This document shows, piece by piece, positions 5,776-61,500 of a stretch of DNA of 64,000 nt. Below the pieces are notes generated by a model, which was not told the DNA's origin, did no database searches, and was given only the letters and a program-made list of their open reading frames with translations. Source of the stretch: a virus. Position 1 is the first letter of the stretch, and every line of letters starts with the position of its first letter. A program made the translations under genes and the position numbers. The stretch spans positions 64,001 through 128,000 of the IMG/VR virus record IMGVR_UViG_3300025154_000049; one strand, given 5' to 3'.

Positions 5776-6846
5776 TTAAATTAATTCATATAACTTATTT
5801 TTTATAAGGAAATCAGCTATTCCACTTTCTCTCCCCACATATAAATTCATAGCTAGGGACATCTTATTATTTAATTCAGAAGTAGCTTTTATGGCATAAT
5901 CTTTTCTAGGTAAATTTTTATTAGTAGCATAGAAATTATCTATTTCCTGAATCAGTTCGTTGTACAAAACTACTAATTTTACCCTGAATTCTTCTAAATA
6001 CTTTAATAAATCTTTATCTTCTTTGAATAAAGGAAGTACATCGTCTAAACCATTACTTAAAATAAGTTCAGATAAGTGTTTTTTATTAGAAATACTATCT
6101 TTTACTCGATGTTTACGTACGTAAACATCGAGTAAAAGATAAATTCTCTGACCATTATCGAAAACTATTACAAACCCTTCTCTGCCAGAGGCAGTCTCTT
6201 GTAATTTAGCAACATCTTCTAAACTTATATTATATTCTTTTACAATTTCAAAAGGGCATCCCCCTAAGTCATGTACTGAATGATATTCTCCAGTAAACAT
6301 ATTTCTAAGAGCCAATAAAACCAATTTTTCTTCGGGATAAAATAAAACTATTTGGTTAGTGGGTGCTACATATTCCATAAGTGGGGTATAACCTTGATTA
6401 ATCCAGTAAGTACAAAAATCCTTAAACTCTTTACTGTTATTGATAATCTCAGTAGCTCTTTTAGATTGCTCCGATTCTATTGTTGATTTTGTCTTAGCAA
6501 GTATTTCACCGTCTGGAAGCATTCCGACGGTTATTAAAGAACCATCTACCTTCTCTGTGATGGATATAGGGGTCAATTTAGATACTAATAACTTGTCTGT
6601 GAAAGGATTTTCCTCATAATTAAAAAATTTTTCAAAATTAGTACAAAATAGTTCTATGTTTCCTTCTTTATCTTTTATAAATGTTTTACCTCTAGCTTCC
6701 AAAGCATTAGGAAGTAAGAAATCAGAATAAGAAGCTAATCTATAGTTAAAAGAAGTTAATTCGTAATCTTTATAAACCTGAACTGACTTTATAAAATTTT
6801 CATTAGTATCTACTAAATTTTGAAAAGAGTTGTAGTAATCTTTCAT
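5776..6846 (-). CDS. rnlA: RNA ligase 1 (T4 Rnl1-like), motif V altered
   Basis: EARG, KFFNYEE, EKVDGSL (motif I), EYVAPTNQIV, EGFV; expected KxK motif V reads IYLLL. Confidence 0.88.
   Translation of the reverse strand: MKDYYNSFQNLVDTNENFIKSVQVYKDYELTSFNYRLASYSDFLLPNALEARGKTFIKDKEGNIELFCTNFEKFFNYEENPFTDKLLVSKLTPISITEKVDGSLITVGMLPDGEILAKTKSTIESEQSKRATEIINNSKEFKDFCTYWINQGYTPLMEYVAPTNQIVLFYPEEKLVLLALRNMFTGEYHSVHDLGGCPFEIVKEYNISLEDVAKLQETASGREGFVIVFDNGQRIYLLLDVYVRKHRVKDSISNKKHLSELILSNGLDDVLPLFKEDKDLLKYLEEFRVKLVVLYNELIQEIDNFYATNKNLPRKDYAIKATSELNNKMSLAMNLYVGRESGIADFLIKNKLYELI
6096..6141. repeat. perfect 46-bp palindrome inside RNA ligase gene
   Basis: TATCTTTTACTCGATGTTTACGT|ACGTAAACATCGAGTAAAAGATA. 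Confidence 0.95.
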
Positions 6847-6857
6847 CTAGTTTTCCT

Positions 6858-7334
6858 TTATGTTGTTAATTCCCGCATTGACAATCTTGTTAATAACCTA
6901 TTATAACATGGTAGATATGTTAAGTCAATATCTTTCTCTTGAATACATTTAAAATCTTTAACATTAATTAATATCTTGTCAAAACTATTAATTAATAGAA
7001 ATTCCAAGAAAGTATTTGTTATAGTTTCGTAGGATATATCATTTTTGAATACTGTTTTCCATATTTCTCTATCTTCAAAAGATAAACATCTCTCATTAAA
7101 ATAGTGTATTTCATAAGTAAAACTATTCCTATTTGCATTATTGAATATTTGATAGAGTATAAAAGGGTATTGGCTTACTCCCAATTCTTGGCATCTCATA
7201 CATTCAGTTAAGAAATCACCACAGTAATGTATTTTCTTAAATTGTTTTTCTGTTCTATAATTTTCATACTTGTACTTCAAAAATGAATATAGAATACCTA
7301 TAATTCCGCCTACTATAATTCCATTAAAAATCAT
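6858..7334 (-). CDS. membrane-anchored hypothetical protein with MxEL tag
   Basis: N-terminal TM; ends SMRELTT. Confidence 0.75.
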   Translation of the reverse strand: MIFNGIIVGGIIGILYSFLKYKYENYRTEKQFKKIHYCGDFLTECMRCQELGVSQYPFILYQIFNNANRNSFTYEIHYFNERCLSFEDREIWKTVFKNDISYETITNTFLEFLLINSFDKILINVKDFKCIQEKDIDLTYLPCYNRLLTRLSMRELTT

Positions 7335-8281
7335 ATAAAATTTTTACCATTAGTAGCAATTGCTATAAGTTTATCTACATCGTACAGTCTTGTAGATATA
7401 GCCAAAGTTTCTAATTCTTTATACATATCCCCATCATTAAAGGGTAGCATTAAATCAGATATATTATCGGTTCCTATTCCTACTTGTATTTCGTACTCCA
7501 ACATCTCGTCTACTGGTGTTATAGAATTATGTACTGGTTGTAAGTCTTCTTTTCTGGGAGAATCCAACCATGCCCTAGGACAACAGATAATAGAAGTTCC
7601 CGTCTCTTTTAAATAGTCGTAGATAAAATTTCTATAATTTCTGGGATGACTAGAAAGAGAAATACAATGGATTAAAGATACTTGACCCTCTAACCCGTGT
7701 TCTACTACCTTGTCTAACACTAACTCTGTTTCTTTTTCTTCAGAAGAATTGAATTGGTCTACATGAACATGAACTTTCTTAGATAATTGTTTAGCTCTTT
7801 TAAATACTATATCCAAATGAGCCTTTGAGTCTACATCTCTAGCTGGCAAAGAACCTATAATATCACAATAAGCAGAACCCATATCAAAGTAGTATCTATT
7901 TTTCTCGTCTAAGATACCTTTTAGAGTTTGGTTAGCACATTTTAGGTCTATTAAAGCTCCAAAATTTCCTTTAACATTTTCAAAAGCTTCATAAGGTTTA
8001 GATTCTGACACTTCATCAAAGTCTAAAAAGGTGCATATTCCTTTAGCTCCATTCATTTTTTGATAAGTAACAGCATTCATCATATTGGTAGTTAGTTGTT
8101 TTAAAGTTATTTCTTTCTTTATACTATCTACTAGATGCCATTTTTGTTTTAAATCCTTATTAGACACGTTAAAATTTTCATCTGTAAGAGTATAAGCTCT
8201 ATCCAAATGAGCATGACAATTATAAAATCCGCCTTTTTTTTCTATAAGGTCTCTAAAATACCCTTCTACATTAAAAAACAT
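7331..8281 (-). CDS. amidohydrolase / cytosine deaminase-like metalloenzyme
   Basis: HAHLD, HVHVDQ, LIHCIS, GTDN motifs. Confidence 0.85.
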   Translation of the reverse strand: MFFNVEGYFRDLIEKKGGFYNCHAHLDRAYTLTDENFNVSNKDLKQKWHLVDSIKKEITLKQLTTNMMNAVTYQKMNGAKGICTFLDFDEVSESKPYEAFENVKGNFGALIDLKCANQTLKGILDEKNRYYFDMGSAYCDIIGSLPARDVDSKAHLDIVFKRAKQLSKKVHVHVDQFNSSEEKETELVLDKVVEHGLEGQVSLIHCISLSSHPRNYRNFIYDYLKETGTSIICCPRAWLDSPRKEDLQPVHNSITPVDEMLEYEIQVGIGTDNISDLMLPFNDGDMYKELETLAISTRLYDVDKLIAIATNGKNFI

Positions 8282-14352: not shown

Positions 14353-15396
14353 CTATTCCTCGTTCTTTAGCAGGTATTTATTACTGATAGCTTTAAAACT
14401 TATTACTTGTCCGTTAATAAGATTTTTAGCTTTGAATACCAGACCTTCTCTTTCAGAGCCAGATATGACAGATTTACCTTCAGCCATCTTTAATAAATCG
14501 GCTACTGTTAAATTATCCAAATTAGTATAACCTAAGATAGGAACATGAGGTATTTCTATCCCATCAATAGTATTTAATTCTTTAAGAGTATTTAATCTCT
14601 CTTCAGGAGTCATATATCTTTTTTTGTCAATGTCAAAGATATCAAAGAGCTTGAAGTGATGTCCTTTGTATTTACCTCTATTCTTTTGTATACCTTCTCC
14701 TACTAATTCTCCCTGTAGGGATATATTTTTACCGTAAATTTCTAACTTTTCCAGTATTCTTAAACTTCTAACAGTATCCCAGAAAGTATTTCCCTGAGTC
14801 TCCTTCAACTCATAGTTCCTAGAACAAACACCTTGTTCTCCATCTTTTCTAAAGATAGTACAAGAACTACCATCTTCTTTTTCAGTTATTTCAAATTCCT
14901 CATACTTATATTTTTCTAAGTAGTCGGGTAAATTCTGAATTCTTTCTTGGTCTGTTTTTGATATCCCAGAAGGAAAATTACCTTTTATATTACCTGCTAA
15001 GTTAGCTGGAAGAGGAGGCTCGTATTTTAGTATACCTAAGTTCTCAGTAACATCATCTCCTACCTGTAAACCAGAAACAAATTCATGACTAAATAATTTA
15101 TGGGGGTCTAACACTAATCCTTGGCTGAGTTGACCACGCAATTTCACTGTTCTGAGACGTTCTCCCCTTACACCTTCATATTCTTTAGGTTCATATCCTT
15201 CTCTGGTAAGAAAGGGAGCTATTTCAGTAGGTATAAAAGAATCTATCTCAAAATAACAAACTTTGTCGGCTTCTTTAAATTCATTTTTCTTAGCTACGAC
15301 AATCCAACCACCTAAATGTAGAGCCTCGATAGCATCTGCTCCTTCTATAGGGGTTATTTTGTCTATCTGTCTTATAGTTGCTAATTTTCTTTCCAT
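14353..15396 (-). CDS. RNA ligase, DRB0094/Rnl2-like family
   Basis: RKLATIR...PIEGADAIE, LRGQLSQGL, KTDQERIQN, EKEDGSS, QGEL, REGLVFK, SFKAIS. Confidence 0.92.
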   Translation of the reverse strand: MERKLATIRQIDKITPIEGADAIEALHLGGWIVVAKKNEFKEADKVCYFEIDSFIPTEIAPFLTREGYEPKEYEGVRGERLRTVKLRGQLSQGLVLDPHKLFSHEFVSGLQVGDDVTENLGILKYEPPLPANLAGNIKGNFPSGISKTDQERIQNLPDYLEKYKYEEFEITEKEDGSSCTIFRKDGEQGVCSRNYELKETQGNTFWDTVRSLRILEKLEIYGKNISLQGELVGEGIQKNRGKYKGHHFKLFDIFDIDKKRYMTPEERLNTLKELNTIDGIEIPHVPILGYTNLDNLTVADLLKMAEGKSVISGSEREGLVFKAKNLINGQVISFKAISNKYLLKNEE

Positions 15397-20492: not shown

Positions 20493-21698
20493 TTAGGTAG
20501 ATTTAAAGTTATAAAGGGGTTTTATAATATCTAATATTTCTACAGTGTCCTGTACGAGCATAATTATCTCCTCTGCTGGTTTATAAGCCATGGGAGCCTC
20601 ATCTAAAGTGGACTGTTTAACAGAAGTAGAATAAACATTAGCCATTTCTTTTTCAAAATCTTCTAATTTTAAAGTATCCTTGGCTTTAGACCTAGACATC
20701 AATCTTCCAGCACCATGAGGAGCAGAATAATTCCAATCTTTATTACCTTTACCTACAGCTAAGATAGAACCGTCTCTCATATTTAGAGGAATTAAAACTA
20801 ATTCCTCTAACTCTGCCGAAATGGCACCTTTTCTTATTATACCATTTTCATCAATATAGTTATGAATAGTTTCAAATCTTTCTATCTCGTTTAAACCCAT
20901 AGATTTTACTATTCTATTAGCCATATTGTGTCTACTGATAGAAGCATATTTTTGAGCAACTTTTAAATCATAAAGGTACTCGTCCTTAAATTCTCCTTCT
21001 AGGAAACATAAATGTTTAGGAGTTTTATATTTTTCATTATACTGTTTAGTCTCTTCTATATAACTCTGTAGCTCTTCAAATTTACCTGCTTGTTTGAAAG
21101 ACTCCATTTTTTCTTTATGGAAATCTTTTACTTTACTAGCACAATATTTCTCAGCTATTCTTTGATGATACTCGGCAACACATTTACCAAAATTCCTAGA
21201 ACCACTATGAATTACTAGGTATTTATCCCCGTAAGTGCCCTCGTTAAGTTCGATAAAGTGATTTCCTCCTCCTAAAGAGCCTATTCCCTTAAGGAAATCC
21301 CCAAAGTCTCTCCCAAGTTTCTTACCTATCTTCTTAACATCGTCCTCTATATTAGAAACATTAGCAACAACTTTATTGTTATTTTTAAATCCGTGGGGGA
21401 TATTATGTCTTATATAATCATCTATGTTCGAGAGATTTAATTCCGATTTATCTAACTTAACTGTAAGCATACCACAACCAATATCTACTCCTATTAAATT
21501 AGGGACAACCCTATCTTTCATAAGAGCAGTAAAACCTATCACACATCCCTTACCAGCATGAGTATCGGGCATGATTCTTACGTTAGTATCTACGAAAGCA
21601 GGAGTATTTATAAGTTCTATTACTTGACCTAACGCTTCCTTCTCTATATTATCAGTATAAACTATAGCATTACTGTATTTACCTTCTAAATTTATCAT
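20493..21698 (-). CDS. rtcB: RNA-splicing ligase RtcB
   Basis: MPDTHAG, GVDIGCG, GGGNHFIE, HSGSR, HNY, RKGA, SAPHGAGR, DEAPMAYK. Confidence 0.97.
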   Translation of the reverse strand: MINLEGKYSNAIVYTDNIEKEALGQVIELINTPAFVDTNVRIMPDTHAGKGCVIGFTALMKDRVVPNLIGVDIGCGMLTVKLDKSELNLSNIDDYIRHNIPHGFKNNNKVVANVSNIEDDVKKIGKKLGRDFGDFLKGIGSLGGGNHFIELNEGTYGDKYLVIHSGSRNFGKCVAEYHQRIAEKYCASKVKDFHKEKMESFKQAGKFEELQSYIEETKQYNEKYKTPKHLCFLEGEFKDEYLYDLKVAQKYASISRHNMANRIVKSMGLNEIERFETIHNYIDENGIIRKGAISAELEELVLIPLNMRDGSILAVGKGNKDWNYSAPHGAGRLMSRSKAKDTLKLEDFEKEMANVYSTSVKQSTLDEAPMAYKPAEEIIMLVQDTVEILDIIKPLYNFKST

Positions 21699-59670: not shown

Positions 59671-59711
59671 AGTATAACAAAAATAGAGAAGGCAGTCAAT
59701 ACCTTCTCTTT
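59671..59711 (-). promoter_or_regulatory. terminator-promoter cassette
   Basis: AGAGAAGG-TATTGACTG-CCTTCTCT hairpin, TTGACT-17-TATACT. Confidence 0.75.
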
Positions 59712-59790: not shown

Positions 59791-59864
59791 TGGAGCGGGT
59801 AGGGAGAATCGAACTCCCTTCATCAGCTTGGAAGGCTGAGGCACAACCTATATACCATACCCGC
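59791..59864 (-). tRNA. tRNA-Gly(TCC)
   Basis: cloverleaf, loop CTTCCAA, CCA end. Confidence 0.95.
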
Positions 59865-59871
59865 TTAATAA

Positions 59872-59954
59872 TACAGGTGAGAGGATTTGAACCTCCACGC
59901 TTTTTAAGGCACGAGTGTCTAAAACTCGCATGTCTACCATTCCAACACACCTGC
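59872..59954 (-). tRNA. tRNA-Leu(TAG)
   Basis: long variable arm, loop TTTAGAC. Confidence 0.92.
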
Positions 59955-59966
59955 ATAATATATAAA

Positions 59967-60040
59967 TGGCTGAGGAGATAGGAATCGAACCCATATTCAC
60001 TGAGTCAAAGTCAGGTGTCCTGCCGTTAGACGACTCCTCA
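59967..60040 (-). tRNA. tRNA-Gln(TTG)
   Basis: loop CTTTGAC, CCA end. Confidence 0.93.
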
Positions 60041-60051
60041 ATAATTAAAAA

Positions 60052-60126
60052 TGGCTCCCTCGGCAGGACTCGAACCTACAGCCATTCGATTAACAGTCGA
60101 ACGCTCTACCATTGAGCTACGAGGGA
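60052..60126 (-). tRNA. tRNA-Asn(GTT)
   Basis: loop CTGTTAA, GCCA end. Confidence 0.95.
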
Positions 60127-60132
60127 ATAAAA

Positions 60133-60204
60133 AGCCCTTTGTCAGATTTGAACTGACAACCTTCATCTTACAAGGATGTTGCTCTACCATTGAGCTAAAA
60201 GGGC
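60133..60204 (-). tRNA. tRNA-Thr(TGT)
   Basis: loop CTTGTAA. Confidence 0.92.
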
Positions 60205-60207
60205 AAG

Positions 60208-60282
60208 TGGGTGGAAGGACGGGACTCGAACCCGCTTTGCTTCGTTCACAGCGAAGGATATTACCCATATATGACCGACCAC
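60208..60282 (-). tRNA. tRNA-His(GTG)
   Basis: loop CTGTGAA, G-1:C73; two acceptor-stem mismatches. Confidence 0.85.
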
Positions 60283-60283
60283 A

Positions 60284-60357
60284 TGGCGGAACTATGGGGA
60301 TTTGAACCCCAGACTTCTCGCAGACAACGAGTAGTTTTACCCCTAAACTATAGTTCC
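60284..60357 (-). tRNA. tRNA-Asp(GTC)
   Basis: loop TTGTCTG, G73, CCA. Confidence 0.88.
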
Positions 60358-60364
60358 AAATATA

Positions 60365-60437
60365 TAGATACTGAGAGACTCGAACTCCCGACTTCCTCCG
60401 TGTAAGAGAGGCACTCTACCGACTGAGTTAAGTATCC
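60365..60437 (-). tRNA. tRNA-Val(TAC)
   Basis: loop CTTACAC. Confidence 0.93.
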
Positions 60438-60438
60438 A

Positions 60439-60514
60439 TGGTCTAGGTGGAGGGACTTGAACCCCCGACTCCCTACGTCCAAGGTAGGATTTCTACCAAC
60501 TGAATTACACCTAG
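60439..60514 (-). tRNA. tRNA-Pro(TGG)
   Basis: loop CTTGGAC, CCA. Confidence 0.93.
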
Positions 60515-60525
60515 ATTATAATTAA

Positions 60526-60599
60526 TGGTGTTTCCTAGAAGAGTCGAACTTCTGTCTAACGCTTATGAGGCGACCGCTCTGCCGTTGAGCTAAGGAAAC
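60526..60599 (-). tRNA. tRNA with CAT anticodon (elongator Met or Ile2)
   Basis: loop CTCATAA, paired 1:72. Confidence 0.88.
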
Positions 60600-60600
60600 A

Positions 60601-60678
60601 TGGTAGCAGGAGTTGGATTTGAACCAACGACCCCCAGCTTATGAGACTGGTGAGCTAACCAGACTGCTCTATCCTGCG
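60601..60678 (-). tRNA. tRNA-fMet-like (CAT)
   Basis: C1:U72 mismatch, A11:U24, loop CTCATAA. Confidence 0.88.
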
Positions 60679-60684
60679 ATAATA

Positions 60685-60758
60685 AGTACCTGATTGGATT
60701 TGAACCAACGACTACAGAGGTTGCAACTCTGCCCCTTAGACCACTTGGGTACAGGTAC
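60685..60758 (-). tRNA. tRNA-Cys(GCA)
   Basis: loop TTGCAAC, U73. Confidence 0.92.
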
Positions 60759-60759
60759 A

Positions 60760-60834
60760 TGGTGGGAGTAGTAGGTACCGAGCCTACCTCTGGTGCTTTT
60801 CAGGCACCCGCTAATCCATCTCAGCTATTCTCCC
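60760..60834 (-). tRNA. tRNA-Phe(GAA)
   Basis: loop CTGAAAA; atypical T-loop CTCGGTA. Confidence 0.85.
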
Positions 60835-60838
60835 ATAA

Positions 60839-60912
60839 TGGTGGAGCTTGGGAGAGTCGAACTCCCGACAAATGGTTGCAAACCAATCGTTTTACCACTA
60901 AACTAAAGCCCC
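60839..60912 (-). tRNA. tRNA-Ala(TGC)
   Basis: G3:U70, loop TTTGCAA, CCA. Confidence 0.93.
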
Positions 60913-60916
60913 ATAA

Positions 60917-61175
60917 TGGGAGGAGTTACCCTCCCCGACTTCTAGGCTACGAGAGCCATTTTACGTCCGAAGTCTAAAGACACTGTGTTGTTTCCGTTTG
61001 TTGTTTTTTGCTATTTTTAAAGAGAATGCCCTCTTACTTGCGAGTTTATCCCTACCTACCACGTCTAAACCTGGCGACCCCATGGTGGAATCGGTGGGAA
61101 TCGAACCCACGTCCGCAACAGACATCAATAAACCTTCTACAAGTTTAGTCCTATTTGTAAGAGTTAGACTTCTCA
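60917..61175 (-). ncRNA. ssrA: circularly permuted (two-piece) tmRNA
   Basis: acceptor piece ending GGTTCGATTCCCACCGATTCCACCA (61083) precedes GGGGTCG...GAC 5' piece (61081); G3:U70; helix 2 pairs; tag ORF 60995-60942 GNNTVSLDFGRKMALVA; outer ends approximate. Confidence 0.9.
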
Positions 61176-61194
61176 TTTAAGTTTTCAAGGTGCA

Positions 61195-61500
61195 ATAAAA
61201 AGAGGTTCTTTTTGTGAGAACCTCTTGAAGAATTTTTTCTTTTATCGTTGGAGCCTATTAAACTCCTCCGTCAGAGGTTCTTGTTCTCATGCCTGTGCAA
61301 TCCACGCTATGTCCTTCAAAATTAATTGACGGATTCGCTATGGTATAGTTTTGTTGTAGCATGAGTTCCATTTTATTTTCTTTCTGACCCGTTAAGGATA
61401 TCATCTTTTCTAATTTGAGTCCTAAGTATTTGTTACTCGGTATGAACTTAGGGATAACCGAAGATAGTTTTTAGTTGCATAGCTATCATAACAACAAATA
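61195..61500 (-). ncRNA. putative structured non-coding RNA (~300 nt)
   Basis: no long ORF; late motif 61510-61525; pseudoknot and stems; terminator hairpin 61201-61225. Confidence 0.5.

Follow-up and report, generated by a model that had tools for sequence, protein, structure and literature searches.

Two-piece tmRNAs are already known from phages. In a survey of phage tmRNAs (Buchholz et al., 2022, PMC9004378), two-piece forms accounted for 53 of 133 unique sequences, most of them found in marine phages. The OM43 phage Melnitz and pelagimyophages carry permuted ssrA genes of the alpha type, which are linked to a glutamine riboswitch and for which support of the hijacked translation machinery has been proposed (PMC9004378). 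The accepted model is that permuted tmRNAs are processed by tRNA enzymes (PMC11915505). In cyanophages, permuted tmRNAs of the cyano type (RF01851) are located directly ahead of tRNA genes. Their tiny acceptor loops (AUCAU, ACUCAU and others) do not encode CCA, so that trimming and CCA addition are needed; the loop of the cultured Synechococcus phage S-CAM1 (NC_020837, L172) comprises 6 nt. The S-CAM1 gene (L172 541-855; NC_020837.1 ~108,640-108,960) reaches 128 bits with RF01851 and directly precedes tRNA-Arg and tRNA-Val. It is unannotated in RefSeq, and in one GenBank copy a hypothetical protein is annotated over the locus. The beta type (RF01850) of Rhodocyclaceae/Azonexaceae (Dechloromonas, Azonexus, Accumulibacter) combines an encoded CCA with a very short spacer. 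In addition, the permuted tRNA-Tyr(GUA) gene of the archaeon Thermofilum pendens encodes CCA, and the intervening sequence in its acceptor loop is exactly one nucleotide long (Soma, 2014, PMC3978253).

The window analysed here comprises 64,000 nt (positions 64,001 to 128,000) of the IMG/VR virus record IMGVR_UViG_3300025154_000049. The record originates from a metagenome assembly and is 158.5 kb long, with 31.6% GC and an estimated completeness of 83%. It belongs to a myovirus, an uncultured tailed phage, with genes for tail sheath, major head protein, head protease and baseplate wedge. The closest cultured phages share only ~37% identity in the major capsid protein. Neither the record nor the complete genome of a relative (L164, see below) yielded an smpB gene, and a CCA-adding enzyme gene was not found in the record either. 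The phage encodes an Rnl1-like RNA ligase/tail-fibre attachment protein (window 5776-6846), a second RNA ligase (14353-15396) and an RtcB tRNA-splicing ligase (20493-21698), all on the minus strand. This RNA-repair set suits a big tRNA array plus tmRNA. The 453-aa ORF flanking the tmRNA has no relatives and no Pfam family.

The sequence-only reading of the window had proposed a permuted phage tmRNA gene with a one-nucleotide intervening segment, and this is confirmed by both ARAGORN and Rfam (Table 1). The ARAGORN call is a permuted tmRNA (tmRNA*) at 60851-61175 on the minus strand, and its tag of 17 residues is the one given by the earlier reading. The 3' bound of this call overruns into tRNA-Ala, the true end being the terminal hairpin. 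The Rfam model RF04321 (tmRNA_permuted, gathering score 47) is matched in full (model positions 1-213) at 61144-60942 with 93.8 bits (E 7.5e-17), and not a single non-canonical pair is flagged in the match. The order is permuted, in that the acceptor 5' strand and the tag frame follow downstream of the T arm, the acceptor 3' strand and CCA. The pairing across the two pieces that had been described before is all present: seven acceptor pairs form, among them G3:U70 and G4:U69, and helix 2 joins both pieces with three paired segments. The T loop is of the GGUUCGAnUCC type. Between the PK1 hairpin and the tag frame there is an A-rich stretch. The resume codon agrees in its position with the Rfam consensus, and the tag has the C-terminal end ...MALVA. 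PK2-PK4 are missing, only one terminal hairpin is present, and a second PK1 stem was not established. The canonical tmRNA fold was recovered by MFE folding neither from the complete precursor nor from the two pieces, as is usual for tRNA-like RNAs. Consequently, the structure is taken from covariance-model alignment and from covariation in just three sequences. Wherever it could be checked, the earlier description of the gene was accurate.

Table 1. Features of the permuted tmRNA gene, its RNA array and its flanks (window coordinates)
Feature	Position	Strand	Remark
Terminator-like hairpin ending the upstream small early gene	61200..61226	-	10-bp stem, then T run
Leader/promoter-like block ahead of the mature acceptor piece	61151..61196	-	Putative; assigned from alignments
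Acceptor piece, ~68 nt	61083..61150	-	5' end taken as the point where conservation becomes complete
Helix 2 strands, acceptor piece	61144-61139, 61133-61127	-	
T arm	61110-61094	-	
Acceptor 3' strand and encoded ACCA	61093-61083	-	Script coordinates
Intervening segment	61082	-	Single U between A76 (acceptor piece) and G1 (coding piece)
Coding piece, ~164 nt	60918..61081	-	
Acceptor 5' strand	61081-61075	-	Begins with G1 at 61081
D-loop analogue	61074-61063	-	
Helix 2 partner strands, coding piece	61050-61044, 61041-61036	-	
PK1 hairpin	61035-61020	-	
Tag frame	60942..60995	-	Resume codon GGA, 17 codons, UAG stop within helix 5; ARAGORN and translation
Helix 5	60974-60937	-	Encloses the stop codon
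Terminal hairpin	60935-60918	-	
tRNA-Ala(UGC)	60839..60912	-	Starts 5 nt past the tmRNA terminal hairpin
13 further tRNAs (Phe, Cys, Met, Met, Pro, Val, Asp, His, Thr, Asn, Gln, Leu, Gly)	59791..60834	-	
Terminator-like hairpin closing the array	59685..59709	-	

The tmRNA heads an RNA array of 14 tRNAs that is bounded by two terminator-like hairpins. Spacers between the tRNAs measure 1-11 nt (Pro>Val 0 nt by ARAGORN's own bounds), and CCA is encoded in most of them. The arrangement CCA-U-5' end found at the tmRNA break is repeated four times between tRNAs of the array (Phe>Cys, Met>Met, Pro>Val and Asp>His, the last of these with an encoded G-1). The earlier observation of an equal spacer between neighbouring tRNAs therefore holds.

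The locus shares features with each of the known types. Like the cyano type of cyanophages it is phage-borne, two-piece and directly ahead of tRNA genes, and its loop is similarly tiny. However, it encodes CCA (loop ACCAU) and lacks the three 3' hairpins/pseudoknots of RF01851. The earlier reading had called the tag cyanobacterial-like. The tag start is indeed alike: cyanophage tags begin N-N-(I/T)-V-x-...-F-x-R, and N-N-I-V-x-F-x-R is seen in those passing RF01851. The beta type has the same layout, comprising an acceptor piece, a coding piece with PK1 hairpin, the tag frame and a 3' terminal hairpin. It differs in its unrelated tag of the A-N-D-E-x-F-A-x-A-A type, in GC content (~60% vs 31%) and in spacer length (3-4 vs 1 nt). 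With the alpha-type genes of Melnitz and the pelagimyophages the sequence relationship is confined to the tRNA-like domain, and Rfam found no riboswitch at the window tmRNA; the role proposed for the RNA is alike. The Thermofilum tRNA gene likewise has a one-nucleotide segment, but it is archaeal and its halves are re-ligated via a circular intermediate, whereas tmRNA pieces stay separate.

Three relatives were compared. L148 is a 2.9-kb contig from a JGI metagenome of another project, obtained in a metagenome scan for 0-2 nt spacers. In the flanks it shares 80-89% identity with the window and has indels, while the tRNA-like domain with the junction, including the entire acceptor piece, is 100% identical. 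L164, found by a viral-contig scan in another IMG/VR sample, is a complete genome of 190,151 nt with terminal repeats. Depending on the region, window and L164 are 72-99.8% identical. Over 1.1 kb of the array the identity amounts to 99.8%; the L164 array contains an extra tRNA-Tyr and a different tRNA-Ala. The single U spacer is identical in window, L148 and L164. The tag peptide of window and L164 is the same, with one synonymous codon change. Of the 15 differences between the two tmRNAs, 13 fall within 43 nt of the tRNA-like domain (window 61063-61110; L164 ~1449-1500), among them double compensatory changes, two in the T stem and two in the acceptor stem. This tight clustering may reflect one recombination patch instead of stepwise compensation. 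With either origin, two distinct versions of the stem retain the one-base spacer. As a side observation, window and L164 seem to differ by a patchwise swap of tRNA-like modules, with tRNA-Ala replaced and tRNA-Tyr inserted, and not by uniform drift.

The third relative, L236, is more distant: a contig of 28% GC whose tmRNA is 69% identical to that of the window. It shares the acceptor and T arms, has a loop of 6 nt without CCA, and possesses its own terminator but no tRNA array. Its tag is co-linear with that of the window and has a similar end; the peptide is different. L164 and L236 score 98.2 and 77.6, respectively, with RF04321. In a covariation test on three sequences (window, L164, L236), using a structure that had been obtained from the window sequence itself, both partners differ in 10 of 52 pairs, compared to 3.3 +/- 1.5 in shuffles and 0-1 in slid controls. 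In this three-sequence structure 94% of the cells pair, and ~50% do so when it is slid. Helix 2 of L236 shows one double compensatory change. Its outermost segment contains breaks and a gap in the MAFFT alignment, read as loss of one base pair. A blastn search for relatives in cultured phages found none, and the exact junction pattern had no match in viral contigs.

The relatives also help to delimit the upstream region. The terminator-like hairpin sits 25 nt ahead of the conserved leader block. It is missing or replaced in L148 and L164, and conservation starts at 61196. A 15-nt block (61196-61182) is kept in all three relatives compared (own, L148 and L164 alignments). The leader may hold a weak sigma-70-like -35 (61188-61183) and a poor -10. 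The first ~50 columns of beta_tmRNA align here, and in our reading their consensus holds -35/-10-like hexamers. A promoter scan did not call the block and detected no convincing promoter directly ahead of the tmRNA. The conserved 15-mer was considered as a recurrent promoter and rejected, as it occurs only once in the genome. Two near-consensus sigma-70 promoters (12/12 and 11/12 matches) at 61600-61543 (-) are cut off from the array by the terminator-like hairpin. Behind both of them and ahead of this terminator, just upstream of the array, lies an ORF of 38 codons (61256-61372, -). L148 has an additional insert of ~245 nt between terminator and tmRNA, which contains a further small ORF.

The one-base spacer is the short end of a known range and not a new kind of gene. 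Spacers of 3-6 nt were found in 31 of 103 viral-contig matches with encoded CCA, and a second scan added 22 with 4-6 nt. In bacterial genomes, 26 genes of the Rhodocyclaceae/Azonexaceae type have spacers of 4 nt (25 genes) or 3 nt (one gene). Spacers of 3-5 nt behind the CCA are common both in viral contigs and in Rhodocyclaceae. Viral cyano-type tmRNAs scoring 100-170 bits on RF01851, in which CCA is not encoded, have 5-6 nt between acceptor position 72 and G1, as seen in 55 of 65 short-loop matches parsed. Compared with the ~13 loop columns in the bacterial consensus of RF01851, the phage versions are compact. The window loop ACCAU and the common viral loop AUCAU are equal in length and differ in one base. 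The tmRNA database counts the three positions after the discriminator as CCA position whatever their sequence (PMC11915505). By that convention, AUCAU-type cyano genes also have a one-base spacer.

Among the scans run, an encoded CCA together with a one-base spacer occurs only in the clade of the window. This gives a lower bound, since the scans for 0-2 nt spacers in genome contigs and metagenomes needed a GGTTTnGAC D-loop analogue and an encoded CCA. The scan of bacterial genome contigs yielded nothing but genes of the Rhodocyclaceae type, whose true spacers measure 3-4 nt, and the metagenome scan yielded one relative (L148) and two tandem-repeat oddities. The latter (L146 1-1042, L147 1-1039) are ~1-kb contigs with two to three head-to-tail copies of a one-piece tmRNA and 0 nt from CCA to G1, for which reason ARAGORN calls both standard and permuted genes. 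They could be assembly or cDNA artefacts; a tandem duplication arranged in this way could also give rise to a permuted gene.

Comparisons among other viral genes indicate that spacer length is labile in related tmRNA genes. Between L078 and L089 on the one hand and L013, L014, L097 and L107 on the other, an intervening hairpin of 26-30 nt has been cleanly lost, down to 4 nt. These genes are 75-84% identical overall, with an identical tRNA-like domain and the same or a near-identical tag. A further viral contig, L033, has a 4-nt-spacer permuted tmRNA heading a tRNA array; it also contains a match to a Type-P5 twister ribozyme (7310-7367, +; 42 bits, cut-off 37.6). A literature search on tmRNA intervening-segment lengths and cyanobacterial tag sequences returned nothing useful.

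Judged by their sequences, the genes of the window, L148, L164 and L236 form a divergent low-GC phage tmRNA clade that fails the three lineage models. The best of these, beta_tmRNA (RF01850), matches the window over its full length with 56.3 bits (gathering 84). The cyano_tmRNA model (RF01851) reaches 43 bits (gathering 70) over positions 36-138 only, i.e. the tRNA-like domain, and alpha_tmRNA (RF01849) 19 bits (gathering 50). The one-piece model RF00023 yields a local match of 36.4 bits (gathering 47). In trees, window, L164 and L236 group with support 99 on a long branch without a resolved sister, their placement being unreliable. The low scores, the well-supported long branch and the lack of PK2-PK4 with a single terminal hairpin would be expected if the clade were a fourth, independently permuted lineage that had arisen in phages or been captured by them, and did not descend from the alpha, beta or cyano type. 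Many other viral permuted tmRNAs, however, fail all three models too, so that failing them is not diagnostic. Furthermore, short spacers are labile among related genes, the break lies downstream of the tag frame at the same place as in every known lineage, and the gene resembles the cyano type in its tag start, its tiny loop and the terminal U. RNAs of ~300 nt at 57% identity cannot resolve the origin. A fourth lineage is therefore rather unlikely. The independent permutation proposed by the sequence-only reading is unsupported in view of spacer lengths that switch between 26-30 and 4 nt, the 3-4 nt of Rhodocyclaceae and the 6-nt loop without CCA in L236. It is likewise doubtful that the clade constitutes a separate phage-borne two-piece lineage in whose CCA-encoding members one RNase P cut within a closed 5-nt loop plus removal of one base would release both pieces. 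If true, it would be the minimal natural substrate on which to test if RNase P requires that leader and 3' CCA be free.

Maturation of the window tmRNA is probably ordinary, although we infer all of its enzymatic steps. The tmRNA would be transcribed as the first unit of the array of tmRNA and 14 tRNAs. The precursor is expected to fold in cis, forming helix 2, the T arm and the acceptor stem closed by the loop ACCAU. Host RNase P would then cut 5' of G1 (61082/61081). This single cut would split the pieces and leave ...ACCA-U on the acceptor piece, from which a host 3' exonuclease would trim the lone U, making CCA addition unnecessary. An RNase P cut at tRNA-Ala followed by trimming to the terminal hairpin would generate the 3' end of the coding piece. 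Encoded CCA with U as the sole spacer base fits a design needing the fewest host steps. The same CCA-U-5' end at the tmRNA break and at four tRNA boundaries suggests plain RNase P cleavage and one-base trimming.

The sequence-only reading had argued that a one-nucleotide linker cannot close the acceptor stem. This does not hold: the closing loop consists of ACCA plus U, i.e. 5 nt, the isolated hairpin folds with -7.7 kcal/mol, and 5-6 nt are normal in cyano-type phage tmRNAs. Nevertheless, the loop might be too tight for RNase P, so that it is first opened by a different endonuclease (host RNase E/G-like or a phage factor) or the strands come from separate precursors. When a tRNA is bound by RNase P, its 3' CCA and 5' leader run apart. 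One nucleotide cannot span this gap, so the usual CCA contact could not form. The phage has two RNA ligase genes and an RtcB gene. For RNase P cleavage within a closed 5-nt loop whose CCA cannot extend freely, no tmRNA precedent was found in the literature. In a review on permuted tRNAs, removal of a 1-nt intervening sequence is flagged as an open question and the Thermofilum pendens tRNA-Tyr is called unexplained (PMC3978253). Against such an unusual route, the equal loop size is standard in cyano-type phage tmRNAs, and loops of 7-8 nt occur across a bacterial family (Rhodocyclaceae-type), where the tmRNA is assumed to be functional. Moreover, the lone spacer base is U, which bacterial RNase P favours at position -1, the CCA-U design also occurs at four ordinary tRNA junctions of the array, and no candidate phage nuclease is linked to the tmRNA locus. 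Unusual maturation is thus unlikely, and the ordinary pathway by RNase P and trimming is preferred.

The gene is, in all likelihood, a functional two-piece phage ssrA in a small divergent low-GC phage clade. Host AlaRS would charge the base-paired two-piece RNA by virtue of G3:U70, and host SmpB would be used. Ala and the 17-residue tag ending ...ALVA would be added to proteins on stalled ribosomes. Tagging would free ribosomes during infection and mark the products for host proteases, with a presumable benefit for the phage. A decoy or relic, i.e. an RNA that is made but does not tag and, for instance, inhibits trans-translation in the host, as does the frame-less tmRNA of mycobacteriophage DS6A, is very unlikely. 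In favour of a decoy, phages are known to have inhibitory tmRNA-like RNAs (PMC11915505), an SmpB gene was found neither in the record nor in L164, and no more than one synonymous change speaks for selection on the peptide. However, the tag frame is intact with its resume codon at the consensus position and its stop within helix 5, L164 has an identical peptide, and L236 has a co-linear tag with a similar end. Furthermore, G3:U70 and the whole tRNA-like domain are kept through compensatory changes. The window tmRNA is, by these features, very probably functional.

The proteins of this phage frequently share a C-terminal tail. Of 303 ORFs in the whole record, 94 end with E-L-(V/I/T) plus 0-2 residues, usually M-x-E-L-V-x; within the window, the tails lie at 587-59664. 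Among 31 cyano-type viral tags (L177, L184, L210, L214, L224, L231, L256 and others), 12 end with (E/D)-L-(V/I/T/A) plus 0-2 residues, compared to 0.1% of shuffled tags; examples are ...R-E-L-V-A-A and ...R-E-L-A-T-A. The tail common to these proteins may be recognised by the same host machinery, as a handle resembling an ssrA tag. The idea that the tag of this phage copies the tail was rejected: with a position matrix 28 of 213 unrelated ORFs score equally, and only the last three residues agree. The window tag (...M-A-L-V-A) lacks the E of the shared tail and gives no score with the tail profile.

That the one-base junction is an assembly artefact or rearrangement, as might be suspected of a metagenome assembly and as the earlier reading had considered, is practically out of the question, because three assemblies of diverged genomes (source record, L148 and L164) contain the same junction.

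Since two-piece tmRNAs of phages are already known, what is new here is the divergent clade and the smallest CCA-encoding spacer among the scans run. Very short acceptor loops are typical of viral two-piece tmRNAs. Because of this, and because spacer length is labile, it should be used with caution as an indicator of origin. For the enzymology of RNase P, the junction offers a natural test of cleavage inside a tight loop. For the phage, the CCA-U-5' end junction shared by tmRNA and tRNAs suggests an array that needs little beyond RNase P and the trimming of one base.
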